Shown one piece after another: positions 2,414 to 48,599 of a stretch of DNA of 64,000 bases. The notes under the pieces were generated by a model that saw only the letters and a program-made list of their open reading frames with translations, was not told the origin of the DNA and searched no databases. The DNA lies in the IMG/VR virus record IMGVR_UViG_3300009175_000009, positions 48,524 to 112,523 of that record; one strand, 5' to 3'. Origin of the DNA: a virus. Lineage: Duplodnaviria; Heunggongvirae; Uroviricota; Caudoviricetes. Numbering within the stretch: the first letter of the stretch is position 1; every line of letters begins with the position of its first letter. The translations under genes were made by a program, and so were the position numbers.

Positions 2414-3487
2414 ATGCGGTTAGTGGATGCAGTGGCTCGATTGAAGATGGTCGGCCTGGGGTTGAGCGGAGACGCCAACGATGACACGGGGCAGTTCGTG
2501 TTCCGAGATGGGCGGGTATCAACCCACAACGGCGTGTTCGGCCTATGGGCCAACATGGACATCGGCATCGAGACGGCCCTGCCGGGCGACAAGCTGACGT
2601 CCCTCCTGTCGAAGTGCAACGGCACCGATGTGGAGTTCACGAACGTCGGCGATTCCGTTCGCATCACCTGCGGACGCACCAACGTCACGATGCGGAAGCT
2701 GGAGATCACTTCCAAGGAGATGCCCGAACTCGCGGGCGTGACCGTCGACTGGCGACGGGCGTGGACCGAGGCACTGGAGCGAGCTTCGTGGTCGATGAGC
2801 GATGACCCACAGCGACCTGACCTCGCGGGCATCACCATGAGCGCGGTCGAGAACGCGATGGTCTTCTACAGCACAATTGGCATGGGTATCACCCGCAGCA
2901 TTGTGCCGGGAGCCAGCGACGACGTTCTGGTCGGCAGTGCCCTGATCATACCGTCCCGGTTCATGTGGGCGGTGCAGCGGGTGGTCGGCAGCCAACCATG
3001 CTCGGCGATTCAGTTTGCCGACGAGTATCTGCACGCCGTGTTCGGCGAAGGTGATAGTGCAGCACACCTGTACGGCAGCTTCCCGTCCGAGGCCAAGCCC
3101 GAACGATACGACGAGATCATCGCCGCCATTATCGATGGTCTGGAGTGGGTGGCCGTGCCCGCAGGGCTCGCACCGACTCTGGATCGCGTGGAGGCAGCCG
3201 GTGGCCGCGATACGATCACGGAGATCACCGTAGCCAACGGCAAGATGCGTCTGCATACCGACGAGGACTTTGGCACCGTCGACGACGAATTGGACTTCCC
3301 TGGTGAGGGCGGACCCATTAAGGTGAAAGCCGCTGTGTTGCGGAAGGCGGCGTCGGTGTCCAACGAGATAGCCATCAGCGCGAACTGCGTCGGCCTACGC
3401 AGCGGTGATGGTTTCATGTACGTTCAGGCCACCGTGACGGATGCCACGGCAACCCCAGCACCACAAGAGGAAGAAACGCAATCATGA
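2414..3487 (+). CDS. putative DNA polymerase sliding clamp (beta-clamp-like)
   Basis: 357 aa; overall size and weak C-terminal resemblance to DnaN domain III; located between pyr gene and polymerase; RBS AAGGAGA. Confidence 0.4.
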   Translation: MRLVDAVARLKMVGLGLSGDANDDTGQFVFRDGRVSTHNGVFGLWANMDIGIETALPGDKLTSLLSKCNGTDVEFTNVGDSVRITCGRTNVTMRKLEITSKEMPELAGVTVDWRRAWTEALERASWSMSDDPQRPDLAGITMSAVENAMVFYSTIGMGITRSIVPGASDDVLVGSALIIPSRFMWAVQRVVGSQPCSAIQFADEYLHAVFGEGDSAAHLYGSFPSEAKPERYDEIIAAIIDGLEWVAVPAGLAPTLDRVEAAGGRDTITEITVANGKMRLHTDEDFGTVDDELDFPGEGGPIKVKAAVLRKAASVSNEIAISANCVGLRSGDGFMYVQATVTDATATPAPQEEETQS

Positions 3488-3938: not shown

Positions 3939-3958
3939 GCAAGCCTGCGGGCTTGCCG
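3939..3958 (+). terminator. GC hairpin GCAAGCC-tgcg-GGCTTGC (no U-tract) immediately before promoter-like motif
   Basis: perfect 7-bp stem / 4-nt loop directly after the stop of the 3484 gene. Confidence 0.3.
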
Positions 3959-3965
3959 TGTCTGG
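3958..3965 (+). promoter_or_regulatory. GTGTCTGG upstream motif (candidate phage promoter core) before DNA polymerase
   Basis: cGTGTCTGG + GGAGACTACAGGAGG; 26 nt before ATG. Confidence 0.45.
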
Positions 3966-3990
3966 TGGAGACTACAGGAGGAAAGTAACA

Positions 3991-6630
3991 ATGGGCGACG
4001 GTAAGTTTTTCACCAGAATAGACCTGAAGGCCCCGACAACGGGGAGGGTCAAGCCGCGGACGACTGGCCGCGACGAGGCGTACTATAACGAGAGGGGCTG
4101 CGACGCATGCCCGCTGGTCGATACCTGCGGTGGAATCGAGGATTCCCAGGTGAAGCCATCGGGAACGTCGCGGCCCCTCATCTACGTTCTGGGCGAAGCC
4201 CCAGGCAAAGATGAGGCTGAAGCGGGTGAACCGTTTGTTGGCAAGGCGGGCCAAGAGCTACGCCGCCATCTGCCCGATATCAGTATCTGTAGATTCAACA
4301 ACCCGGTGCGAGCACGGCCCGAGAACAACCGTGTGCCGACGATGTCCGAGGTGGAGTCATGCCGACAGCACCTCGTGGCTGATATCGAACGCACCAAGCC
4401 TGCGGCAATCCTTGCCTGCGGAGCAACTGCCCTGAGTTGGTTCATCGGCGGTGAGCCACGAATCACAACGTGGCGTGGGCGTCGCCTGCCCGTGCAGGTA
4501 GGGAGTCATCGGTGCTGGATGTATCCGGTGATGCATCCGTCCTTTATCATACGGCAGGGCGGTGACAAGGGTGGACCCGACCGCGAGGCTCGCCAGCATG
4601 CCGTCATGTTCAAGCACGATATCAAGCGGTGTTTCGCCGAGACCAAGAAGGGTATCGACCTGGGTGACCTGCCCTGGAACATCGATGCTCTGGAGGATGG
4701 CGTGGAACTGGCGACGCCCAAGCTCGGCGTCAAGTGGGTGGTGAAGATGCTAGAGGACGCCGCGAAGGCGAAGATCTGCGGCCTCGACCTGGAAACCAAC
4801 CGCGTGCGTCCCTACGCCAGCGGATCCCGAATTCTGAGCATGGCCATCAGCACGCCCAAGACGGCGTTTGCATTCCCGATAGGCCACAGTGATGCGTGGT
4901 GGTCGGCAGAGGACGAGATCGTACTGACGAGTGCCATCCGAGGATTCCTGCTAACCAAGATGATGAAGGTTGTCCACAACGCCAGCTTCGATATGGAGTG
5001 GCTGCTGCGGTTCTACGGCGTGCAAATCCTGAAGGATGATCTGTGGAATACGTGGGGTTGCACGCAGAACCAAGCGTACACCCTCGACGAACGCAAAGAG
5101 GACAGGATGCAAAGCCTCGATAGCCTGTGCCTGGAACGCTTGGGCACGCGGCTGAAGAAGTACAGCGACGTCGATGCCAAGCGTGGTGAGGTGGCCGAGA
5201 TCGGGAAGCTCCTGCGGTACAACGCCCTTGATGCTAAGTGCCATAGGCTTCTGTACGAAGAGCAGAACCGGGCACTGAAAGCGACGGGTATGCTGAACAC
5301 GTATCTCGATCATGTTCGTCGCGTACCGTTCCTCGTCTTGATGCAGCACAAGGGCGTTCCCGTCAGCCAGCCGGTGGTCGAGGAACTGCTGACAGACACT
5401 AACACCAAGATCAGGTTGGTAACGCAATCCGCCCTTGATACGCCCGAGGCTCATCAGTATCGCAATACATGGGGCACGCCGTTCATCATCAACGGTAAGG
5501 GCAGCCGCGAATGCCTGGAGAAGGTGTTCGGGCACATCGAAGCCCTGTACCGCAAGGACGCCAACGGCGAGGAAGTTTTCACGACCGATAGCAGCGTATT
5601 CAGCACTATTGATTCGCCACTGGCCCACAGTATCAGCGAGTTCCGCGAGTGGACGAAGATACGCGATACTTATCTTCTGCCCATGCGTGCCGGTGCGGGT
5701 AGCTTGGTTTACGAGGACGGCAATCTGCATGCCAACTTCAATGGGACGTTCACCGATACCGGGCGGCTGTCGTCTGACGGCCCGAATATGCAGAACTTTC
5801 CCAAGCGTGAACACGCCGAGGTGCGGAAGATGGTATCGGCCCCTGAAGGCTGGCTCATTGTATCCGCCGATATGAAGCAACTGGAAGTCTGCGTGGCGGC
5901 CCAAATGTCGGGCGACAAGCGGTTGCTGAAGGCTGTCCGCGAACGGGCCGACATTCACATGAAGTACGCGATCATGCTCAGCGAGGGCGTGCCGTTGTAT
6001 TTGGAACTGGTCGGTCACGGTGATATCAAGAAGGCACGCTCGGCGATCAAGAGCCTGATCACCTTCCCGTTTCTGTACGGTGCCATCCATACGACTGCCT
6101 CCCGCAACGTTCTGGCCAGCATGTCACAGTTCGACCGCGACAGGGCCGAAAGCGTCCGCAAGAAGGTGGAGAGAACCTGCGAGGACATCGAAAAGGAATT
6201 CTGGATTGAGTATCGTGATGTCAAGGCATGGCAGAACAAGCTGATGTCGGACTACGAGAAGAACGGCTATGTCACCTGCATGAACGGGCGTCGCCGCCGC
6301 GGGCCGCTGTCGATCAACCAGATCGCTAATACGCCTATTCAGGGCAGTGCCAGCGACCTTGTGGTGGACGCCGGCAATCGGCTGGCTCAGAAGGGCCTGC
6401 GGGACAATAACATGGCCCTGGTGATGAATATGAATATTCACGACGACCTGACGACCTTCGCCAAGAAGGAGGCCGCCGACGACGTGATGGCCGAAATGGT
6501 TGAAACCATGTTGCACCCCGGTTACGAGAACTGGGACATCAAGGCATGCCCGCTGGGCGTGGAGGTTTCTATCGGTTCCAACTGGTCGAATCAGAAGGCT
6601 ATCGGGACGTGGTATAGCGACGAAGCCTGA
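3991..6630 (+). CDS. family-A DNA polymerase with N-terminal family-4 uracil-DNA-glycosylase-like domain and 3'-5' exonuclease domain
   Basis: UDG4 motifs CDACPL, GEAPGKDE, PFVGKAG; exo motif DLETN; PolA motif A SADMKQLEV, motif B RSAIKSLITFPFLYG, motif C IHDDL; RBS GGAGGAAAG before ATG 3991. Confidence 0.9.
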   Translation: MGDGKFFTRIDLKAPTTGRVKPRTTGRDEAYYNERGCDACPLVDTCGGIEDSQVKPSGTSRPLIYVLGEAPGKDEAEAGEPFVGKAGQELRRHLPDISICRFNNPVRARPENNRVPTMSEVESCRQHLVADIERTKPAAILACGATALSWFIGGEPRITTWRGRRLPVQVGSHRCWMYPVMHPSFIIRQGGDKGGPDREARQHAVMFKHDIKRCFAETKKGIDLGDLPWNIDALEDGVELATPKLGVKWVVKMLEDAAKAKICGLDLETNRVRPYASGSRILSMAISTPKTAFAFPIGHSDAWWSAEDEIVLTSAIRGFLLTKMMKVVHNASFDMEWLLRFYGVQILKDDLWNTWGCTQNQAYTLDERKEDRMQSLDSLCLERLGTRLKKYSDVDAKRGEVAEIGKLLRYNALDAKCHRLLYEEQNRALKATGMLNTYLDHVRRVPFLVLMQHKGVPVSQPVVEELLTDTNTKIRLVTQSALDTPEAHQYRNTWGTPFIINGKGSRECLEKVFGHIEALYRKDANGEEVFTTDSSVFSTIDSPLAHSISEFREWTKIRDTYLLPMRAGAGSLVYEDGNLHANFNGTFTDTGRLSSDGPNMQNFPKREHAEVRKMVSAPEGWLIVSADMKQLEVCVAAQMSGDKRLLKAVRERADIHMKYAIMLSEGVPLYLELVGHGDIKKARSAIKSLITFPFLYGAIHTTASRNVLASMSQFDRDRAESVRKKVERTCEDIEKEFWIEYRDVKAWQNKLMSDYEKNGYVTCMNGRRRRGPLSINQIANTPIQGSASDLVVDAGNRLAQKGLRDNNMALVMNMNIHDDLTTFAKKEAADDVMAEMVETMLHPGYENWDIKACPLGVEVSIGSNWSNQKAIGTWYSDEA

Positions 6631-7711: not shown

Positions 7712-7968
7712 AAGTTATCTTAGGATATTCCGATGACCGTACCGACAGCGTGAATCAGGACTCCCCGCCGCGGATCGGTGAAGGTGTCCAGATAGACGGT
7801 GATAAAAGAAACTACCTCGTGGCCGATGTCGTCCACGTATACAGCAGAGACCAATACGGGCAATTGCGGCATGTAACCGTTGTCGCTGAACTTAAGGAGA
7901 TACCCAATGGCGGAACGCCGCAAACTGACACGCAACACGCAGGAATCGTTGATACCGGCCAAGGCTGA
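7708..7968 (+). CDS. hypothetical protein (3' end overlaps clamp-loader start by ~60 nt)
   Basis: ORF with ATGA overlap upstream. Confidence 0.35.
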   Translation: MKVILGYSDDRTDSVNQDSPPRIGEGVQIDGDKRNYLVADVVHVYSRDQYGQLRHVTVVAELKEIPNGGTPQTDTQHAGIVDTGQG

Positions 7969-8929
7969 GAAGCCTGCACCATCGCCCGAAGCGGACTTTT
8001 GTAACATCTACCGTCCCGGCACGTTCGATGATATCCTCGGCCACGAGTCTATCAGTACCAGCGTCAAGGCAGTTCTGGATTCACGAAGCAAACGATGCTT
8101 CGTGTTCACCGGGCCGAGCGGCCTGGGCAAGACCACGTTCTCCCGCGCTATCAGGAATTATGTGTGCGGCGGCAACGACCTGCTCATGGACTACAAGGAG
8201 GTCGACGGCCCGGTCTACAGCAGTGCCGAGAAGGCCCGCGAACTGGTCGAGTGGATGCGGTACAAGCCCATGATCGCCGGCGGCAAGAAGCTGATCTGCG
8301 TGGACGAGGCACATGCTTTGTCGGGGCAGGCCTGGCAGTGCCTGCTGAAGTCAGCCGAGGAGCCGCCACCCTACGGGTACTGGATCTTCTGCACCACGGT
8401 CAGTGGCAAGGTGCCGGCCACCATCATGACCCGCGGAGCGAGCTACAATCTCGAACCGCTGGATGCCAAGACCCTGTTCGTCCTGCTGCAAATCGTGAAC
8501 GAAGAGCAGAAGCTGAACCTCGACGACGATATCCTTGATCTTATTGCCCACGAGTCGGACGGCAGTCCGCGTATGGCCTTAACGAATCTCGACAAGTGTC
8601 GAACTGCCGAGGATCGCCGCGAGGCAGCGGTGCTGTTGCAGGGTGCGTATGAGAACCCCGACCTGCGAGAGCTATGCCTTGCCATGAGCAAGGGCGGAAT
8701 CTCCTGGGAGAAGGCCATGAAGGTGCTAGGCGGCCTGAGCAACCTCGACCCCGAGGGCATCCGCATCCAGATCGTGCAGTACTTCGCGTCCATCGTCCGC
8801 AACGCCAAGAACCCAGCCGCGGCTGGTGCGGCCATCGAGGTGATGGACTGCTTCCTGCCGGGGCCGCTTTACTCTGCCAACAAACATGCCGAACTGTACG
8901 TCATGCTGGCCCGCGTACTGCTGAAATGA
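7907..8929 (+). CDS. clamp loader ATPase (DnaX / RFC small-subunit-like AAA+)
   Basis: IYRPGTFDDILGHE, Walker A GPSGLGKTT, DEAH, sensor KSAEEPPPYGYWIFCTT…TIMTRG; RBS AAGGAGA; N-terminus MAERRKLTRN carries the Arg tag. Confidence 0.8.
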   Translation: MAERRKLTRNTQESLIPAKAEKPAPSPEADFCNIYRPGTFDDILGHESISTSVKAVLDSRSKRCFVFTGPSGLGKTTFSRAIRNYVCGGNDLLMDYKEVDGPVYSSAEKARELVEWMRYKPMIAGGKKLICVDEAHALSGQAWQCLLKSAEEPPPYGYWIFCTTVSGKVPATIMTRGASYNLEPLDAKTLFVLLQIVNEEQKLNLDDDILDLIAHESDGSPRMALTNLDKCRTAEDRREAAVLLQGAYENPDLRELCLAMSKGGISWEKAMKVLGGLSNLDPEGIRIQIVQYFASIVRNAKNPAAAGAAIEVMDCFLPGPLYSANKHAELYVMLARVLLK

Positions 8930-9369
8930 TCAACAGCCTTACTGCTATCGAATGGACTCGCGTGCGGGCGTTCTGCCGGGACAAACGCCCGGATGAGATT
9001 ACACCAAACGCCTTGTACCGGGCGGCACGTGGTTTGAAGGCTGGTAGCCGGAACACGAACATGGTGACCGATAGCATCATGCTGGACGCTGTGCGTATGT
9101 GGTGCGTGAAGCCCGAACCTCCCAAGGAGAAACCTGTGCCGAAGCACTTATACATTACCGTGACTGGCCCCGCGATGTCGGGGAAGTCGACTGTCGTTGA
9201 GGTGATCGCTCAGGCTCTGGCTCGTGCTGGGTTGAAGTGCGATGTGAATTACGGGGATGACGGTCAGCCAACATCACCGTTGTCCCGACGCATTGATGCC
9301 ATGAAGATTGCCGCACCGAATATCACTATTAACCAACGGCAGACCCAGCGTGAGCCTTCCAAAGATTAA
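8926..9369 (+). CDS. small P-loop NTPase-like protein
   Basis: ITVTGPAMSGKSTVV Walker-A-like; ATGA overlap with clamp loader stop. Confidence 0.45.
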   Translation: MINSLTAIEWTRVRAFCRDKRPDEITPNALYRAARGLKAGSRNTNMVTDSIMLDAVRMWCVKPEPPKEKPVPKHLYITVTGPAMSGKSTVVEVIAQALARAGLKCDVNYGDDGQPTSPLSRRIDAMKIAAPNITINQRQTQREPSKD

Positions 9370-10207
9370 GACCGTCGTGCCTTGGTTCGGATCCGCGAGA
9401 ACGGTTGCCGAACGCATCGGTGAGCATCTGACCGGCTTCAAGTGGGTGGGTATACCGTTCTGCGGCGGATTGTCGGAGGTGCTGTACATCCAGGCCCGAT
9501 CCATCGTCTGCAATGATATGCACCGGCACATGATCAACCTCGCCCAGGTGCTGAAGGACGCGACGCTGGGACCGGCCATGATCGAAAGTCTGCGGGACGA
9601 ACTGTTCCATCCGGAGACGCTGGCACACGCTCAGGCTACCTCGGCTGACACGGACAATGATCAGTTGATTCCTATGGGTGCCCGCGCGCTGAACTACGAG
9701 GCTGCGAGGCAGTACTTCATCGCCTGTTGGATGGGCCGCAGTGGGAATGCTGGCGGCGACAGGGAGTTCACGGGCAACCTGTCGGTGCGGTGGAACGCGA
9801 ACGGTGGTGATTCTAATACGCGGTATCGCTCCGCCGTCGAGAGCCTGGCTGCGTGGCGGAAGGTCATCCAGCGATGTAACTTCACGTGTATGGACTGCTT
9901 CGAGTTTCTAGAGACCTGCGAGGATGATCCCGAGCACGCCATCTACTGCGACCCGCCGTGGCCCGAAGATGGTGATGTGTATAGGCACAAGTTCACGCGA
10001 GAACATCATACGCGGCTGGCCCAAATCCTGACGCGGTTCCAGAACGCACGCGTGGTGGTACGAATCAACACGTGTTCATTAGTGGATGAGTTGTACCCTC
10101 GTGGGTTGTGGAATTGGAATCAGCAAACGAGTCGCACGCAGGGCAACAATGATAAGGTAGAGGTGATTTTGGTTTATCGACCCCGAAGAAAAATTCAACG
10201 TGTCTAG
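9350..10207 (+). CDS. dam: DNA N6-adenine methyltransferase (Dam / D12 class)
   Basis: PWFGSAR…FCGGLS (motif I region) and YCDPPW (DPPY motif IV); start uncertain (TTG 9308 or GTG 9350). Confidence 0.7.
   Translation: MSLPKIKTVVPWFGSARTVAERIGEHLTGFKWVGIPFCGGLSEVLYIQARSIVCNDMHRHMINLAQVLKDATLGPAMIESLRDELFHPETLAHAQATSADTDNDQLIPMGARALNYEAARQYFIACWMGRSGNAGGDREFTGNLSVRWNANGGDSNTRYRSAVESLAAWRKVIQRCNFTCMDCFEFLETCEDDPEHAIYCDPPWPEDGDVYRHKFTREHHTRLAQILTRFQNARVVVRINTCSLVDELYPRGLWNWNQQTSRTQGNNDKVEVILVYRPRRKIQRV
10200..10207 (+). promoter_or_regulatory. GTGTCTAG + TGTAGGCAGAGGAG motif
   Basis: 22 nt upstream of ATG 10229. Confidence 0.45.
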
Positions 10208-10228: not shown

Positions 10229-10738
10229 ATGCCAACCAACGAACGAACGACAACGCGAAGCAACCTTCGCATCGACAAGCACGCCCTGGATCGCGAGGTC
10301 TGCGAGCAGCCGGAGAAATCACTGAATGCCGGCCAGGAAGCTGCGAGGCTCGCCTCGGTGCGTGATTTTGCGAAGGACAGAATGAAGGTGGTCGCAGCCG
10401 AACGTGCCCTTGCTATCCGCGAGGAACTGACCGCCGAGGGTGGACGTGTTACGGAGGCTCAGATCGATGCTCGTCTCACGACAGACTCCGAACGAATCGA
10501 TGCACATCACGAGTATATTCGAGCTGAACGTGACGCCGCGATGGCTGAGGCCGAACGTGATGCATGGAAAGAACGAGGCTACATGCTCAAGTCTCTCGGC
10601 GATCTGTACGCCGCAGGCTATTGGGCCAACGCAAGCCTCGCCGGTGACCGACGTGCCGCCGAAGAACGTGCAGGTGACGAGGCCCGCCAAGCCGTGGCGG
10701 ACCAGCGACGTCGCATGAACAGCACCTCGCGAGAATGA
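10229..10738 (+). CDS. hypothetical coiled-coil protein
   Basis: ORF preceded by GTGTCTAG motif plus GAGGAGAA RBS. Confidence 0.5.
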   Translation: MPTNERTTTRSNLRIDKHALDREVCEQPEKSLNAGQEAARLASVRDFAKDRMKVVAAERALAIREELTAEGGRVTEAQIDARLTTDSERIDAHHEYIRAERDAAMAEAERDAWKERGYMLKSLGDLYAAGYWANASLAGDRRAAEERAGDEARQAVADQRRRMNSTSRE

Positions 10739-10759
10739 TCGCGGAAGCCAACGGCAGAT

Positions 10760-10767
10760 GTGTTTAG
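10760..10767 (+). promoter_or_regulatory. GTGTTTAG + TGTAGGAG motif (variant)
   Basis: 77 nt upstream of SSB-like gene. Confidence 0.35.
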
Positions 10768-10843
10768 TGTAGGAGTAGCAAGCGGGACGATAAGGCGACC
10801 CGTAACGCTGGAACCAAGAACCTGTAACCAATGAGGTGAACCC

Positions 10844-12166
10844 ATGCCTACAAGAGGCAACGACCGAAATCGCGGCGGTTTTCAATACCGCGAACGCTCA
10901 TCGGCCACCGTACAGCGGCGTGCCAACCAGAGCGGTGGTGCTTTCGACTCGCTGTTCCGCAGCGATGTTGACGTCGTCTCCATCAAGGAGGGCGACTGGC
11001 GGCTGCGTATCTGCCCGCCGTCGTGGAACGATCATCTGCTGGAAGAACTGGGGATCGTCCATCCCACACGTTCCGACGACTGGGATCCGGAAGGTGCCGA
11101 TGACTTTGGCCTGGAGGTCTATGTTCACTTCAGCGTGGGCGCGGACAATCAGAAGTACTTCTGCCTGAAGAAGATGAAGGGCGAAGCCTGCCCGGTGTGC
11201 GAAGAGCGTGAACGCGTCGCCGCACTGGGTGCTGCTGGGATGTCGATGGCGGATAAGGACTTCGACGATTACATCCGCAACCTTCAGCCGACAAAGCGGG
11301 TGATCGCATACGTGATCGACCGCGACGAACGCAACAGTGGCCCGCAGCTTTGGAACATGGCGTGGTCGATGGACCGCGACTTGAACAAGCTGAGCATGGA
11401 CAAGGAAACCCGCGAAGCCGTGTGCATCGATCATCCCGAGGAGGGATTCGACATCGAGTTTTCTGTGACCGGCACCGGCATCAAGACGAAGTACGGTGGC
11501 ATCGCCATTGCTCGCCGCAGCACGCCGCTGAGCGACAACCCTGACCGTCAGGACGACTGGTTGCGTACCATCGCCGAGAATCCGATTCCCGAGCTTCTCA
11601 CCTTCCACGACTATGAGCACATCAAGGCTGCTCTGGCCGGGCAACGCCGCAACCGCGACGAAGGTGGAGATGATCGCCGAGGCGGTGGAAATCGCGGTGA
11701 CGACCGCAGGCACGCCCGCGACGACGACGATGGTGATCGCGGCAGCCGTAGCCGAGCACGCGATATCGCCGACGACGATGACGACAACCGAGCCCGCCGA
11801 CCGGCGATCCGGGGACGCGACGCTGACGTTGATGATGATCCGCCGCCCGCACGTGGGCGAGGACGCGACCGCGACGACCACGACGATGACCCGCCACCGG
11901 CCCGTGCTGGCCGCAACGGGGGCCGCAGCCGAGAAGCCGACGCGGACGTCGATGACGACCGTGACCCGCCGCCAGCCCGCGACACGGGCCACGACGACGC
12001 CCCGCCAGCCCGCCGCCGCAGCAGCCGTGCTGCCGAGGAGGCTACTGACCCACCGGCCCGCGAGACCCGCAGCCGAAGCCGCGACGCCGATGCCGACGAC
12101 GCCCCGCCCGCACGCACGAGCTTGCGGGATCGCGTGGCCGAGGGACGCCGCCGCAGCGAAAGCTGA
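10844..12166 (+). CDS. putative Zn-containing ssDNA-binding protein (gp32-like) with long repetitive acidic/Arg C-terminal tail
   Basis: GDWRLRICPPSWND and CLKKMKGEACPVCEER resemble the gp32 N-terminal/zinc region; C-terminal ~170 aa of DDDPPPAR/RDRDD repeats. Confidence 0.45.
   Translation: MPTRGNDRNRGGFQYRERSSATVQRRANQSGGAFDSLFRSDVDVVSIKEGDWRLRICPPSWNDHLLEELGIVHPTRSDDWDPEGADDFGLEVYVHFSVGADNQKYFCLKKMKGEACPVCEERERVAALGAAGMSMADKDFDDYIRNLQPTKRVIAYVIDRDERNSGPQLWNMAWSMDRDLNKLSMDKETREAVCIDHPEEGFDIEFSVTGTGIKTKYGGIAIARRSTPLSDNPDRQDDWLRTIAENPIPELLTFHDYEHIKAALAGQRRNRDEGGDDRRGGGNRGDDRRHARDDDDGDRGSRSRARDIADDDDDNRARRPAIRGRDADVDDDPPPARGRGRDRDDHDDDPPPARAGRNGGRSREADADVDDDRDPPPARDTGHDDAPPARRRSSRAAEEATDPPARETRSRSRDADADDAPPARTSLRDRVAEGRRRSES
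11640..12130 (+). repeat. in-frame degenerate tandem coding repeats (DDDDPPPARGR…) in SSB-like tail
   Basis: repeated gatgatccgccgcccgcacg / gacgatgacccgccaccggcccgt-type units. Confidence 0.6.
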
Positions 12167-12987
12167 ACCGAATGATTGCGACTACCTGCACTAGAAGGAA
12201 AACCCGGCGACGGGTAGACTGGTGGGTAGCCGCAAGGCTTCGCCTCTCAGTCCCAGTGGGGGAGAGGCGGGTGGTGAGGGCTGGCCGGAATCAGGACGGA
12301 TTGGGATGGACGCGCTTGAGCACACCTGATGGGCGTTCCACTCGACCGCAGCATGGCCTGTCAACGCAAGGCGGCAGGGTTGCCTGCGAGACCAGCCTTC
12401 ACCACCCGATTGCGAAGCGACGGGTTTGTTCTTGGATCAGACGACGATGTGCTCGTAGACGCGCTGGGTTTGCACTCCTACCTAGCATACTACGGTGATA
12501 GCGGAGGTGGTTAGATACGAACGATGCAGTAGGTAGCTCGTAGCGACCGATGGTATCGAAAACGGTTAAGCCAGCAATGCGTCAACGACATGCAGGCGCG
12601 AACGATATGATCGTTCTACGGCAGAATGAACAAGTGCAGGCATGCAGATGACGACGGTCTCTGAGGGGCCTGCACGTGCCCCGCCCGGCGGCGATTCCGA
12701 AATAGCCGGGCTCGCTTTATATGGAGATCATGAGCTATGGTTCCAGCGAGTCCGGTCACCTCGCCTGTCGATAATGACGATGCCGAGATCGATCTACTTC
12801 TTCGACAGGCGAGTGCTGACCGGATGGATCCAGGCGAACGCCTCCGTGGCCTACCGCATCCGTGCTTCTTCATGCCGTACTGGTTCAAGTACGATTCCAT
12901 CAGGCAACGCTGTCCTCGCTGTGGTATGTCAGGCGTCGAGATGCGGATGCGGTATCAGACTACGGAAACGGGAAAGCAACCGTGATC

Positions 12988-12995
12988 GTGTCTAG
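12988..12995 (+). promoter_or_regulatory. GTGTCTAG motif
   Basis: ends the 0.85-kb gene-poor region, 16 nt before ATG 13011. Confidence 0.4.
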
Positions 12996-13010
12996 TCAGC
13001 CGAGGTAACT

Positions 13011-13169
13011 ATGAACTGGTTTTTAGACGTATGCGACGAGGCGGAGAAAGTTCACAAGATTTGGACTTTCCCGTTCATCATTTTGACCGCACCCGGAATG
13101 TTGTATGTCTTCTTCATAGGACTGTGCATACGGGGCATCAGGAAGGTTAGATCATGGCGAAGAAAATAG
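13011..13169 (+). CDS. small membrane peptide (52 aa, MNWFLDVCDEAEKVHKIWTFPFIILTAPGMLYVFFIGLC…)
   Basis: ATG 15 nt after the GTGTCTAG motif with GAGG RBS; below the track's size cut-off. Confidence 0.3.
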   Translation: MNWFLDVCDEAEKVHKIWTFPFIILTAPGMLYVFFIGLCIRGIRKVRSWRRK

Positions 13170-14347
13170 TTCGACGACGTCTCGTAACGGCAACGCCCCC
13201 ACCTCCGCAGCGTGAGGAAGAGGACGAAGACGTCGAGTCAACCGAAGATGAAACACCGGCCCGCGGGTCACGTGCAGCCCCACGTCGCACGGCTAAGGCT
13301 ACTCGCCGCAAGACCGCCCGCGATACCGATGACGAGCCGTTGGTACGCGACGGTGGGGCCTACGGGCTCACGGGCGACATGGAGGATATCCGTGTTAAAC
13401 GATTCGGTTCGGGCTGTACCCTTCTGGACTGCGAGATTGGTGGTGGTGGTGGCGGAGCGTTCCCTGAAGGCCGCGTGGTGAACTTCGCTGGCTGGCAGTC
13501 AACGAACAAGACAGGCGTATGCATCGAGGCGTGTGCCAACTTTTCCATCGCCTATCCGACCGGCATCACGCGATATAACGACGCCGAGGCCGCGTTCGAT
13601 GTGAATTATGCCCGCCGCATGGGACTGCCGATGGACAGAATCAGCTTCGTCGAGGAGTGCCGTATCGTCGAGGTGTTCTTTCAGGACGTGAAGGACTTCA
13701 TTGCCGAGTGTGAACGCCGTCGCGTGCCAGGCTTGTATATCATCGATAGCCTTGATGCCCTGAGCGATCAGGCCGAACTGGATGGCGGTATGGACAAGGC
13801 CAGTTACGGTATGGCGAAGGCCAAACGCATGTCACAGTTCTTCCGCACCCTGGCCGGCCCTTTGAACTCCGCCAAGGTGACCCTGATAGTCATCTCGCAG
13901 CTACGCGACAAGCTGAATGTATCGTTCGGCGAGAAGGCGACGCGTGCCGGCGGCAAAGCCCTGGACTTCTACGCTTCGTGGGTGGTGTGGCTGTCGCATA
14001 TTGGCCAGATCAAACGCTCGGTCAACGGCATCGAACGCGTGGTCGGTGTTCGCATCAAGGCCAAGTGCAAGAAGAACAAGTGTGGCCCGCCGTTCCGCGA
14101 GTGCGAGTTCCCCGTGATCTTTGACTACGGCATCGATGACATCGAATCGATGGCAGACTGGTTAGTTGAGGTGAAGAAGTGGGAACTGTTCGATGAACGA
14201 AAACCTGGAACGTACCTGAAGTGGCTGGACAAACAGCCGCGTGAAATGTACATTAGCGAATCCAAGCGTATGTCCGCAGTGGTGCGGGCCGAGTGGGACA
14301 AGATCGAGGAGTCATTCTCGCCGAACTTCTCGAAGTACGGTAGCTAA
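13154..14347 (+). CDS. RecA/UvsX/RadA-family recombinase with degenerate Walker A
   Basis: RecA-core layout: GWQSTNKTGV (Walker-A-like), YIIDSLDAL (Walker B), loop regions GGKALDFYAS; N-terminus MAKKIVRRRLVT Arg tag. Confidence 0.7.
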   Translation: MAKKIVRRRLVTATPPPPQREEEDEDVESTEDETPARGSRAAPRRTAKATRRKTARDTDDEPLVRDGGAYGLTGDMEDIRVKRFGSGCTLLDCEIGGGGGGAFPEGRVVNFAGWQSTNKTGVCIEACANFSIAYPTGITRYNDAEAAFDVNYARRMGLPMDRISFVEECRIVEVFFQDVKDFIAECERRRVPGLYIIDSLDALSDQAELDGGMDKASYGMAKAKRMSQFFRTLAGPLNSAKVTLIVISQLRDKLNVSFGEKATRAGGKALDFYASWVVWLSHIGQIKRSVNGIERVVGVRIKAKCKKNKCGPPFRECEFPVIFDYGIDDIESMADWLVEVKKWELFDERKPGTYLKWLDKQPREMYISESKRMSAVVRAEWDKIEESFSPNFSKYGS

Positions 14348-15579: not shown

Positions 15580-16140
15580 ATGGCTCAAGGCTGCCGCTGT
15601 CTGCCGGGATGTAGAACCCGGAGTAACTACGTTTGCACGCGGCGGTTCGTGGCTACATCGACGACCGGCGACGAGGTGGCCAGTAAGTATTCCGAGGTGA
15701 AGTGCCTTGCCTGCGGCGGCAAATGGCGAACCGACGCAGTCTACGTCGAGAAGCTGCGAAACTACCGCGAGCGCAAATACCGCAGGATGACCGATGATCA
15801 AATACTACAACTGATCGAGGAAGGTCATCTCAAGGTCAATCCGATAACCGGCGTGGTTCGTAAGCACCGCAAGGTTTGTCACGAGTGGACGAAGCAGTGG
15901 GTCATCCTCAAGCAGGATTTAGACCGTAATGGTTACCCCAGCGTCCGCATCTACTGGAACGGTCACCGCAAGGGTGCTATGGTTCACAGATTAGTTTACA
16001 TGGCCGTTCGCCGAAAACTAATACCGGATGGTTACGATGTAGATCATCGAGATAAGAATAGGGCGAACTGTTCTTATAGGAATCTTAGGCTGCGAACCAT
16101 AGCCGCGAACCGTGGTAGGGTGGACGATGTCCCATTTTGA
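15580..16140 (+). CDS. HNH homing endonuclease
   Basis: HNH motif GYDVDHRDKNRANCSYRNLRL; N-terminal Cys cluster. Confidence 0.8.
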   Translation: MAQGCRCLPGCRTRSNYVCTRRFVATSTTGDEVASKYSEVKCLACGGKWRTDAVYVEKLRNYRERKYRRMTDDQILQLIEEGHLKVNPITGVVRKHRKVCHEWTKQWVILKQDLDRNGYPSVRIYWNGHRKGAMVHRLVYMAVRRKLIPDGYDVDHRDKNRANCSYRNLRLRTIAANRGRVDDVPF

Positions 16141-18928: not shown

Positions 18929-19176
18929 TACCAACAGCCGAAGAGAATCCTAACGGACTTCACCAGCGGTATAAGGTCACCAAGGCCGATGGTACGACGT
19001 GCGACCCGAACGCCGTGTACTTCGTACTGCGTCTGGACAGTGGTGGCAGCATAGGCCACATCGCCTCGTGCCGCGAGGCTGCTGTGGCCTATGCTGCCGC
19101 AAGCCAGCACTACCCAGACCTGAAGGACGTCGGTATCGAGCTTCTACGGCTGGTGCATAAACTGGAGACCGCGTGA
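18925..19176 (+). CDS. hypothetical protein
   Basis: ORF, ATGA overlap. Confidence 0.45.
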   Translation: MIPTAEENPNGLHQRYKVTKADGTTCDPNAVYFVLRLDSGGSIGHIASCREAAVAYAAASQHYPDLKDVGIELLRLVHKLETA

Positions 19177-19790
19177 CCGAACGCCGCCGCATTAAAACTA
19201 CCGACTGGCGTGAGGTGATCACTCCCGAACGCAGACTGATCATGGGTATCGATCCCGGCATGAACGGTGGCTTGGCTGTCACCGAGACCGGACCCAACGC
19301 GATCATGTTGGTCAAGCGGATGCCCGAAGGGAACGACGAACTGTGGGCTTGGCTGCGGCAGCATATCGCGGATCCAAGCAACGTCAGCGTCTACATCGAG
19401 GCCGTGCATGCCTATGCGATGGGCGTGGCTGGGGCATTCAAGTTTGGCGTAGGTTACGGGCGACTTCTGGCGTTCATGACAGCTCTGGATATCATCCCGG
19501 TTAAGGTGCAGCCCGCCACTTGGCAGCGGGCCATGAACATCCCGACGACCCGCAAGCCAGTGCCCGTGGACTTCCGCAAGCAGGACGGCAGCACACGGAC
19601 GACCAAGGCGGTCAAAGCACTGCTCCAGGCTGAACACAAAGAGGATATCCGCAAGCGGGCTCAGGAACTGATGCCCGATCTGGACGTGTGGCAGAAGACG
19701 AAGAAGGAGCAAATGGCGGTATGCGACGCCCTGCTGATCACATACTATGGCGTGGTGACGAATGGCGGAATCAATTCAGCCGCGATGTGA
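19173..19790 (+). CDS. ruvC: RuvC-family Holliday junction resolvase
   Basis: IMGIDPGMNGGLAV (RuvC motif ILGIDPG) and C-terminal DALLITYYG (DAADALAIA); 20-aa N-terminal extension MTERRRIKTT carries the Arg tag. Confidence 0.65.
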   Translation: MTERRRIKTTDWREVITPERRLIMGIDPGMNGGLAVTETGPNAIMLVKRMPEGNDELWAWLRQHIADPSNVSVYIEAVHAYAMGVAGAFKFGVGYGRLLAFMTALDIIPVKVQPATWQRAMNIPTTRKPVPVDFRKQDGSTRTTKAVKALLQAEHKEDIRKRAQELMPDLDVWQKTKKEQMAVCDALLITYYGVVTNGGINSAAM

Positions 19791-44578: not shown

Positions 44579-44830
44579 ACTCTTCGCAGGACTGGCACGA
44601 CGGCTACGTTCAGGGCCAGCTTGACTACGCCGAGGCGTTCCTGCGGGCGACCGCGGCGATGCGGGAGAAGGCGGCGAAAGCGAAGGTGAAGCCGTGAGTT
44701 GCTATCGGCTGTGGTTTAATGTACCATGAGTCTAGTCGAGCATCGCCAATGCCCAAATCATGTCCGCCACGCCCTGTCTGCGTTTGGCGATGCTCCAGGG
44801 CCTCTGGCGGACTGCATAAGGAGCATCGCC

Positions 44831-45376
44831 ATGCTAGAACGACGACGAATTCAAACAAGTCCTGAAGAAATTAGGAAGGCTAGAAAGAGGTACACAAATC
44901 GCCAGTGTTACCTACGGAATCGTGAATCTATAAATATGCGTAGTGCAAAAAGATGGGCAGAACTTTGGAAGAATGATCCAGACAAGGCAAGGGCGATAAT
45001 TGGCAAGAGTCAACGCAAGCATCGAGATCGTCGTCACGTAGATGTTTCCATAGCGTTAGAGTGTATGATGCGAAACGCACGTGCTCGTAGTGCCAGACGT
45101 AACCTGGATTGCAACATATCGCTAGAATACCTGCGTCAGGTTTATGATTTACAGGGCGGTGTTTGTGCTATAACGGCTATGCCGTTTGAGCAAACTACTG
45201 ACTACGGAAAGATGTCGTTAGATCGTATTGATCCATCGTGTGGTTACGTTCAGGGTAACATTAGAATTGTTTGGTTACTAGTGAATAACGCTATGGGTGT
45301 CTGGGGTGAGGGGCCTTTACTTCGAGTTGCAGAGGCGATTGTGGAACGGAATTTAGTAAGGAATCAACCTAAATGA
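44831..45376 (+). CDS. putative freestanding (homing) endonuclease-like protein; N-terminal MLERRRIQT tag
   Basis: AAGGAG RBS; C-terminal SLDRIDPSCGYVQGNIRIVW resembles phage HNH/AP2-type endonuclease DNA-binding modules; lies between truncated and intact copies of one gene. Confidence 0.4.
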   Translation: MLERRRIQTSPEEIRKARKRYTNRQCYLRNRESINMRSAKRWAELWKNDPDKARAIIGKSQRKHRDRRHVDVSIALECMMRNARARSARRNLDCNISLEYLRQVYDLQGGVCAITAMPFEQTTDYGKMSLDRIDPSCGYVQGNIRIVWLLVNNAMGVWGEGPLLRVAEAIVERNLVRNQPK

Positions 45377-48399: not shown

Positions 48400-48599
48400 A
48401 GGTACGCATGCTGACGCTTGAGTTCAATAATGGCCCGCCGCTGACGATGGTGGTTCCAGACGGATCCGTTCGTGATGGAGCCACCGTCACGGGAGTCATT
48501 CTAACCGAGGCCATCGACGCCCCGGACTTCTCCGATGATATGGTGCAGTCTGTGATCGAGAACGGTCGCCCCGTGCTGAAGCCCGTGAGGTCGAGATGA
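48390..48599 (+). CDS. hypothetical small protein
   Basis: ORF. Confidence 0.35.
   Translation: MQMKVRMLTLEFNNGPPLTMVVPDGSVRDGATVTGVILTEAIDAPDFSDDMVQSVIENGRPVLKPVRSR

Follow-up and report, generated by a model that had tools for sequence, protein, structure and literature searches.

What does a phage protein do whose last 175 residues are an extreme low-complexity region of Asp blocks and Arg-rich spacers? The question is raised by an open reading frame (ORF) of 440 amino acids (aa) at 10844-12166 on the + strand of a 64,000-nucleotide stretch (positions 48,524 to 112,523 of the Caudoviricetes record IMGVR_UViG_3300009175_000009), which is called the window here and whose numbering is used throughout. 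The original prediction, made without database searches, compared its product to gp32, the single-stranded DNA (ssDNA)-binding protein (SSB) of phage T4. The protein is best filed in the gp32 structural family, as part of a distinct uncharacterised subfamily (PHROG 34306) with a long blocky polyampholyte tail. We hold with moderate confidence that it is a gp32-family SSB of replication and recombination, and that its tail is a flexible linker with acidic blocks and a basic docking helix. The gene and its product were divided as follows.

10833-10836, + strand: Shine-Dalgarno-like GAGG, 7 nt before the ATG at 10844, read from the sequence
10844-10960, + strand: conserved basic N-terminal segment, aa 1-39, consensus F-x-Y-x2-R-x7-R-A-x-Q-x-G-G-x-F-D
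10961-11653, + strand: predicted gp32-type OB-fold ssDNA-binding core, aa 40-270 (AlphaFold2, Foldseek, PHROG, hhalign)
11027-11104, + strand: insertion of ~26 residues, aa 62-87, DHLLEELGIVHPTRSDDWDPEGADDF (alignment A1), shared by the closest relatives and missing from most of the family
11126-11200, + strand: putative zinc site His95, Cys107, Cys116, Cys119 (H-x11-C-x8-C-x2-C; hhalign)
11639-12115, + strand: disordered R/D polyampholyte linker, aa 266-424 (AlphaFold2, composition and shuffle tests, substitution rates)
11768-12118, + strand: degenerate repeat zone, aa 309-425 (PP(P)AR motifs and 33-nt DNA copies)
12116-12166, + strand: conserved basic C-terminal peptide TSLRDRVAEGRRRSES and stop codon (predicted helix 427-437)

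The fold of the core was modelled with AlphaFold2 (AF2) using 61 relatives, which gave a predicted local distance difference test score (pLDDT) mostly above 90 for residues 40-270. Comparison of the model with the Protein Data Bank (PDB) using Foldseek placed RB69 or T4 gp32 in all of the best six positions (2a1k, 8gme, 1gpc, 2atq), with E-values of 1.4e-7 to 6e-6, a probability of 1.00, target-normalised template modelling (TM) scores of 0.53-0.62 and ~244 aligned columns; the seventh-ranked match fell to E 0.037. Among predicted viral structures (BFVD), 26 matches were obtained at E<=1e-3, including all 8 proteins named 'SSB', and the remaining named matches at this threshold were 'uncharacterized'. 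Profile searches assigned the protein to PHROG 1192 (SSB; 2.6e-11) and to PHROG 34306 (unknown function; E 2.8e-34), the latter over residues 4-310, which comprise the core and the start of the tail. The Pfam scan returned the gp32 family (PF08804) alone and no bacterial SSB-family match, and NCBIfam gave no match. The PF08804 cut-off of 26.8 bits was exceeded by the relatives P0002 (81% identical to the window protein; 31.1 bits), P0004 (35.8), P0038 (32.1) and P0010 (30.7) and by the homologues of Edwardsiella phage vB_EpM_ZHS (37.6) and Vibrio phage SSP002 (28.9). The fold-prediction check of the N-terminal part against gp32 and other SSBs, which had been suggested together with the gp32 comparison, thus came out in favour of gp32, and the fold search, hhalign, the PHROG SSB match, Pfam (relatives included) and synteny agree.

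A zinc site had been proposed from the sequence as well, and the motifs named for the fold and for this site, 'GDWRLRI' and 'CLKKMKGEACPVCEER', are both found in the protein. The family profile was aligned by hhalign with the T4 gp32 sequence, which was checked against PDB 8GME. C107, C116 and C119 fell on the gp32 zinc ligands C77, C87 and C90, and H95 was one column off H64; this is a pattern match only, and it is consistent with the proposed site. 'CPVC' is the same in both proteins. T4/RB69 gp32 (PDB 1GPC, 8GME, 2A1K) is also the best structural match for the core, which in the model adopts a gp32-type fold and carries the His/Cys3 pattern of gp32. The complete set was present in 35 of the 61 relatives, and replacements at the zinc positions in alignment A2 included Cys116 to Asp and Cys119 to Ala or Ser, among others. 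Relatives that lack the zinc set look like a natural zinc-free lineage of gp32-like proteins.

The core is preceded by the basic N-terminal segment, in which Y15, R18, R26 and D35 are nearly invariant among the 61 relatives and a helix is predicted at residues 20-27 (AF2 pLDDT 72-81). The segment does not contain the KRKST (LAST) motif of gp32, and the window protein differs from gp32 in this as well as in the 26-residue insertion in its core. By analogy, the segment is possibly the counterpart of the gp32 cooperativity N-domain (residues 1-21).

Translation of the gene, and of its tail in particular, was verified by codon-position analysis. A frame-agnostic nucleotide alignment of three relatives was prepared, and mismatches were tallied by codon position. 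In the annotated frame, mismatches at third positions were about twice as frequent as at positions 1-2, with 0.40-0.49 versus 0.18-0.23 in the tail and similar behaviour in the core; the annotated frame is therefore the translated one. The ratio of nonsynonymous to synonymous substitution rates (dN/dS) against relatives of 79-81% identity was 0.14-0.16 for the core and 0.24-0.33 for the tail; the underlying alignment was protein-guided, which biases dN downward, and the frame-agnostic result agrees with it. The possibility of an untranslated or neutrally evolving tail was rejected on the basis of dN/dS and the excess of third-position mismatches. The tail is a translated and predicted disordered region on which purifying selection acts, and tails of its kind are conserved throughout the subfamily.

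Two further ORFs overlap the gene.

11613-12194, + strand (frame +1): overlapping ORF, 193 aa, rejected as spurious, as codon-position substitutions back the annotated frame only
10898-11992, - strand: antisense ORF, 364 aa, spurious, its register matching the sense codons

The +1 frame is open because of the repetitive GAC/CGC/CCG codon content. The 440-aa gene holds a single TTA, CTA or TCA codon, the sense codons that would give an antisense stop, and since the antisense ORF lies in register with the sense codons it was judged an artefact of codon usage. It is moreover broken at codon 146 in P0002, so the original prediction was right to call it spurious. Rfam gave no match at 10500-13300, and no promoter-like site was found; the single terminator-like site was weak and antisense. 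In the 5' leader (10739-10860), an autoregulatory structure like that of T4 was rejected, with a fold z-score of +0.49.

The tail was analysed by composition and by shuffling. AF2 pLDDT was mostly below 50 for residues 275-424, and the highest-charged 40-residue stretch among all window ORFs lies in the tail (fraction of charged residues, FCR, 0.62). Residues 266-440 contain 42 Arg, 0 Lys, 42 Asp and 7 Glu (R 24%, D 24%; net charge -7), which corresponds to an FCR of 0.52 and a net charge per residue (NCPR) of -0.04 over 175 aa; for comparison, the C-domain of T4 gp32 has 48 residues and an NCPR of -0.25. Charges are segregated above shuffles (z = 3.3, kappa ~0.27). By composition, as a long stretch of R and D/E with near-zero net charge, the tail belongs to the arginine-rich mixed-charge domains (R-MCDs). 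The linker consists of an RGG/RD-rich stretch followed by six or seven units, each made of an acidic block, PP(P)AR and an R-rich spacer. Six PP(P)AR motifs, beginning at residues 333, 350, 375, 387, 403 and 421, each follow an acidic block, and this number was reached in 0 of 20,000 composition-preserving shuffles, in which the maximum was 3. The description of a long, hyper-repetitive acidic/Arg tail therefore holds for the low complexity of the last 175 residues and for the D blocks with PP(P)AR, but the tail is not net acidic.

At the DNA level the repeats are degenerate, as had been claimed, but they are interspersed and irregularly spaced instead of tandem. The best repeat family is a 33-nt unit in five copies of 67-79% identity, starting at 11821, 11872, 11947, 11983 and 12082 (spacings of 51/75/36/99 nt). 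Tandem Repeats Finder reported just two arrays, of 21 and 32 nt, and none in the repeat zone; the longest exact repeat was 15 nt, a length that 3.7% of codon shuffles match or exceed. A clean, slippage-prone tandem repeat was rejected on these grounds. The linker model of E. coli SSB, in which PxxP motifs and the OB fold interact, was likewise set aside; PPPAR does not fit PxxP, and the model is disputed (PMC10164576, PMC7145534).

The proposed instability of the repeat number was not borne out at strain level. An identical 440-aa protein was found on 16 contigs from at least 5 samples; the BUCK21-1 and GROS21-1 metagenomes are source samples. Of the DNA copies of the gene, three showed 0 differences and a fourth (P0001) carried one single-nucleotide polymorphism, I204L. 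Since short-read assemblies would hide minority length variants, this result stands only for the absence of visible polymorphism. Length changes appeared only between ~80%-identical relatives: the tails of the window protein, P0002 and P0003 have 175, 171 and 179 aa and differ by several in-frame indels, several of them at least one repeat unit long and the largest being an extra DDPPPRTRSRDA in P0002. Within the linker, the islands DDDDDNRARRPA and PPARRR were kept between relatives.

The most conserved part of the tail is its extreme C-terminus. The peptide TSLRDRVAEGRRRSES is unchanged in P0002 and P0003 amid divergent linker sequence, and its basic helix SLRDRVAEGRRR, predicted by AF2 at residues 427-437 with a pLDDT of ~60, is identical across the three closest relatives. 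The pattern S-[LI]-[RK]-[DE]-R-[LIV]-x(1-4)-[RK]..[RK] was present within the final 30 aa in 35% of 184 relatives versus 1.1% of interior windows. The protein ends in RRRSES and does not have an acidic DDDIPF-like tip. In a few members (P0010, P0103, P0208, P0005) an E. coli SSB-type DDDIPF tip is added or substituted, and because these relatives end in DDDIPF a partner-hub role for the tail end gains support. The C-terminal peptide is probably a docking tip.

gp32, T7 gp2.5 and E. coli SSB all have acidic ends. The window protein, unlike gp32, ends in a basic helix. The original statement that canonical SSBs have a short acidic tip proved too simple, as the acidic domain of gp32 spans 48 residues and E. 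coli SSB combines a 56-residue linker with a 9-residue tip (PMC5892887).

To place the tail within its family, relatives were collected from a protein database and from contigs of the European Nucleotide Archive (ENA), as scans of IMG/VR and JGI metagenomes had given no close relatives. A word-indexed search yielded 68 homologues, and an exhaustive search of metagenome cluster representatives 2,006 at E<=1e-3, of which 575 reached E<=1e-30. The architecture of the examined PHROG 34306 members was alike. Tail statistics were calculated for the region after the core in 212 retrieved sequences. Tails had a median length of 132 aa (interquartile range 107-165, maximum 269), a median FCR of 0.53 and a median NCPR of -0.08. 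As 39 of the 212 reach at least 175 aa, the tail of the window protein cannot be called unusually long within its family. Charge blockiness exceeded that of shuffles, the median z being 4.1 and 69% of tails lying above z = 2. The order 'acidic, Pro(-Pro), basic' was found 6-7 times as often as expected (92 vs 13.4; 245 vs 41.7), whereas the reverse order reached 1.4 times expectation. R/(R+K) was 0.67 in the tail versus 0.47 in the same proteins' cores (p = 3e-16), and 19% of the family have Lys-dominated tails. Variants of the same grammar elsewhere in the family include EEERPRRRARRE, DDPPKKRSR and EDEQPRRRSR; since the acid-Pro-basic grammar is family-wide, the DDDPPPAR unit is its local GC-rich version. 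The version with D blocks and PP(P)AR is confined to the closest relatives P0002 and P0003 and a few others (P0009, P0168). The family keeps tail composition, not tail sequence. Within its own clade the protein is ordinary, and many subfamily members end in a basic C-terminal peptide.

The family tails are also modular. A helical mini-domain (W..I..M....L..LI...DLADWICEEMK, as a regular expression) occurs in 36 of the 212 members, for example as WESIHEMT..ELEDLIDQEKLDINP..DLADWICEEMK in mid-tail, and is not present in the window protein. A CxxC...CxC knuckle was seen in 6 of 212 members and an R/D/S-rich N-terminal extension of at least 40 residues in 30 of 212. Such modular members include P0014, P0022, P0040, P0061, P0004/7/8/17/18, ZHS_54 (L001 5758-7128) and SSP002 gp072 (L002 5983-7122). 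A literature search found no paper on the subfamily or its tail.

The genomic neighbourhood is that of a replication/recombination module. Every sizeable ORF of the window lies on the + strand, and PHROG-based annotation gave the following neighbours.

2414-3487, + strand: sliding clamp
3958-6630, + strand: DNA polymerase
7880-8929, + strand: clamp loader
9308-10207, + strand: DNA methyltransferase
10229-10738, + strand: phrog_1069 protein
13154-14347, + strand: RecA/UvsX-type recombinase
15580-16140, + strand: HNH endonuclease

As with T4 gp32, the gene thus lies in a replication/recombination module beside a RecA/UvsX-type recombinase. The same order of clamp, polymerase, clamp loader, small ORFs, homologue, RecA and RuvC was found in Edwardsiella phage vB_EpM_ZHS and Vibrio phage SSP002, where the homologues (456 aa and 379 aa) are mostly annotated as hypothetical. 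With SSP002 gp072 (YP_009598663.1, Mardecavirus) and ZHS_54 the window protein shares, besides this synteny, 30-36% core identity, a long blocky mixed-charge tail and a basic C-terminal LR..MR..R motif. Both are phages of 71-76 kb, whereas the contig of the window has 192.5 kb. A link with nucleus-forming jumbo phages, considered for a contig of 192 kb, was dropped, since the 71-76 kb phages bear the same tail.

How the parts may work together is suggested by better known SSBs. In gp32, an N-domain (residues 1-21) confers cooperativity and the OB core has a cationic trough, while the acidic C-domain (254-301) contacts other T4 replication, recombination and repair proteins and also serves as a salt-sensitive gate over the DNA-binding surface (PMC5892887). 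The window protein has the same three-part layout of short N-terminal segment, OB core and disordered C-terminal region, but the last is near-neutral and has 175 aa instead of 48, so that the acidic C-domain of gp32 has no strict equivalent. In E. coli SSB, partners are recruited by an acidic tip of 9 residues that follows a disordered linker of 56 residues (PMC5892887, PMC10164576); this linker favours non-nearest-neighbour cooperativity and condensation (bioRxiv 10.1101/2022.01.17.476650, bioRxiv 10.1101/797431, PMC12143593). In logic, the window protein may be compared to E. coli SSB, as in both an OB core is followed by a disordered linker of low conservation and by a C-terminal peptide that is conserved. 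It differs in belonging to another fold family and in probably being monomeric like gp32 instead of tetrameric, and its linker is highly charged, not Gly/Gln/Pro-rich, and its tip is basic.

For the preferred reading as a gp32-family SSB with a linker and docking helix, the following mechanism is inferred. The zinc-stabilised OB core would coat ssDNA, probably cooperatively, and the basic N-terminal segment would, as in gp32, take the role of the N-domain in contacts between subunits. The blocky Arg/Asp polyampholyte of 160 residues would form a flexible linker. Its acidic blocks could bend back over the DNA-binding cleft and gate it electrostatically, by analogy with gp32 and T7 gp2.5, and could contact basic segments of neighbouring SSB molecules (bridging) and of partner proteins. 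The C-terminal basic helix SLRDRVAEGRRR would be the specific docking peptide for partners from the replisome or from recombination.

Several results weigh against this reading. The Pfam gp32 score of the window protein itself is 23.2 bits (E 7.7e-5, aa 101-218 only), which is below the cut-off, probably because the 26-residue insertion splits the match. The hhalign comparison with T4 gp32 was weak (E 0.0015, probability only 17%, 182 columns), and phmmer and family-profile searches of PDB sequences gave no meaningful match, so that the link to gp32 rests on the fold comparison and hhalign. The His/Cys3 set is incomplete or missing in 26 of the 61 relatives, including SSP002, whose homologue lacks the Cys ligands; the metal site is therefore not universal or essential in the family. 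Because the tail is near-neutral, a pure DNA-mimic gate of the gp32 kind is less obvious. In E. coli, deletion of most of the SSB linker had little phenotype (PMC10164576), and linker sequence may matter less than assumed in the mechanism. No biochemical data for any subfamily member were found in the literature search.

Among the alternatives, a passive role of the linker survives best, although we regard it as unlikely. The linker would be a soluble entropic spacer selected for length and charge balance, all specific function would lie in the OB core and the C-terminal peptide, and the DDDPPPAR units would be by-products of local duplication in a GC-rich gene. The fast divergence of the linker, with in-frame indels between 80%-identical relatives and similar composition and length, agrees with such a spacer, as does the conservation of tail composition rather than sequence in the family. 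Normal growth of E. coli without most of the SSB linker, all PxxP motifs included (PMC10164576), points the same way. A spacer would, however, leave several regularities unexplained: the islands DDDDDNRARRPA and PPARRR kept within the linker, the acid-Pro-basic order at 6-7 times expectation versus 1.4 times for the reverse, blockiness far above shuffles in 69% of tails, and the preference for Arg over Lys relative to the same proteins' cores.

The composition of the tail also brings up self-association. Eukaryotic R-MCDs of nuclear speckle proteins are likewise R/D-rich, near-neutral, long and blocky (bioRxiv 10.1101/771592); origin and cellular context are unrelated, and the resemblance is compositional only. 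As an arginine-rich mixed-charge domain, the tail might mainly serve to drive self-association or phase separation of SSB-coated ssDNA into a compartment for replication or recombination, a reading that is legitimate because Arg/Asp mixed-charge domains condense in eukaryotic cells but that we consider rather improbable. Synthetic and natural R/D mixed-charge domains condense in a length- and Arg-dependent manner, and an excess of negative charge abolishes condensation (bioRxiv 10.1101/771592); the window tail, with its equal shares of R and D, no Lys, near-zero net charge and blockiness, has the matching properties, and family tails prefer Arg. Condensation of E. coli SSB proceeds via its linker (bioRxiv 10.1101/797431; PMC12143593), T4 gp32 and UvsX are condensate scaffolds in vitro (PMC11951158), and the adjacent RecA carries a mixed-charge N-terminal extension. 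However, Lys abolishes condensation in the cited model system, and 19% of family tails are Lys-dominated; gp32-type SSBs are monomeric and have less built-in multivalency than a tetrameric SSB, and proline-rich, highly charged tails may simply remain expanded and soluble.

The extension of the recombinase (aa 1-70, 13154-13360) comprises ~70 residues, MAKKIVRRRL...PPPPQREEEDED...TPARGSR..., and echoes the SSB tail. The RecA orthologues of ZHS and SSP002 (L001 7132-8247; L002 7865-8968) also have basic or mixed-charge N-terminal extensions.

A third use of the acidic blocks, which is the hub idea of the original prediction, appears improbable: together they would offer a multivalent docking surface to phage DNA enzymes with a basic tag, (E)RRR[IM]QT, at one terminus. 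The tag, searched as (E)RR[RK][IM]Q[TSN], was counted 11 times among selected + strand ORFs, where 0.2 would be expected, and + frames had 14 copies whereas - frames had 0. Copies lie nearly always 3-5 residues from the N-terminus or at most 7 residues from the C-terminus. Where a carrier has an annotation, it is a DNA enzyme: the methyltransferase (9308-10207), a RuvC-like resolvase (19173-19790), an endonuclease VII/HNH protein (44726-45376) or a protein of DNA repair. Strongly basic termini were seen in 7 proteins of SSP002, 4 of which are the SSB, gp070 from the adjacent upstream gene, RecA and RuvC; the termini of the last three are K/R-rich. Nothing ties the tag to the SSB tail, however; the sliding clamp (2414-3487) is just as plausible a receptor, DNA itself could simply be what basic termini bind, and the tag would face competition for the acidic blocks from the Arg blocks of the tail itself. 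SSP002, moreover, has no ERRRIQT, though it keeps the tail type. Because codons differ between copies, the tag acts at the protein level; it fits charge-based recruitment and, equally well, binding to the clamp or to DNA. In its widest form the proposal would make tail and terminal (E)RRRIQT tags a recruitment code, in which six or seven acidic docking blocks and at least 11 tagged proteins concentrate enzymes on SSB-coated ssDNA. The methyltransferase, the resolvase, endonuclease VII, the repair protein and proteins of unknown function would be gathered in this way, possibly as a condensate. We give such a code little chance of being correct; if true, it would mirror the bacterial SSB-Ct interactome with the charges reversed.

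The tag starts on the + strand at 10184, 19182, 30964, 37557, 40966, 44840, 46525, 49263, 51133, 51555, 56571 and 57736, in at least 11 ORFs; behind a C-terminal copy the sequence often continues with ..GEL.

That the gp32-like fold has been repurposed, for example as an annealing or mediator protein or an RNA-binding regulator, is suggested by a core with just ~11-14% identity to gp32 in the structural alignments, a core net charge of -12 and a zinc site dispensable in the family, but is very improbable given the conserved synteny with polymerase, clamp loader and RecA, structural neighbours that are all SSBs where a function is named, and the finding of no other SSB among window ORFs in the PHROG scans run, which were not exhaustive.

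Some further observations concern the surroundings of the gene. The phrog_1069 gene, kept just 5' of the SSB gene, encodes a protein with an Arg-rich end (ADQRRRMNSTSRE), and its SSP002 counterpart gp070 (L002 5347-5838) has an Arg-rich end too (RRKRAERDDRSNRRRTRRT); the protein is a candidate partner of the SSB or of RecA. Directly 3' of the SSB gene, 570 nt at 12167-12736 (+ strand) contain no convincing gene and fold far better than shuffles (z = -4.12, 0/100), with no match in Rfam. A hairpin-like block, GAATCAGGACGG...ACACACCTGATGGGCGT (~12288-12345), is kept in the contig of the 81%-identical relative (L003 5309-5761). The region may be a structured RNA of a new type or a 3' untranslated region element.

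The window sequence is identical to part of a metagenomic contig of 192,532 bp (ENA ERZ27245846 k141_83342, L005), from which a large phage is taken to be the source. Contig L006, from another sample, is identical through the SSB gene and shows 131 ungapped mismatches from window position 9823, within the methyltransferase gene; this divergence could mark the edge of a recombined or mosaic segment, or stem from an indel.

For the annotation of the window the outcome is modest: the gene can be labelled a gp32-family SSB and the ORFs that overlap it removed. The wider meaning lies in the role of SSB tails as organising hubs of replication, recombination and repair. A large, essentially unstudied phage clade (~2,000 cluster representatives, with cultured Vibrio and Edwardsiella phages) departs from the acidic-end models; its tail is a long Arg/Asp-Glu polyampholyte, blocky and near-neutral, which follows a directional acid-Pro-basic grammar and closes with a basic C-terminal helix. 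If this tail gates DNA, mediates cooperativity or recruits partners by the matching of charge blocks, the rules of SSB hubs would be extended, and the clade would offer a tractable prokaryotic model for mixed-charge disordered regions. The main interest is in the tail grammar shared across the clade and in the lessons it could hold for SSB hubs.

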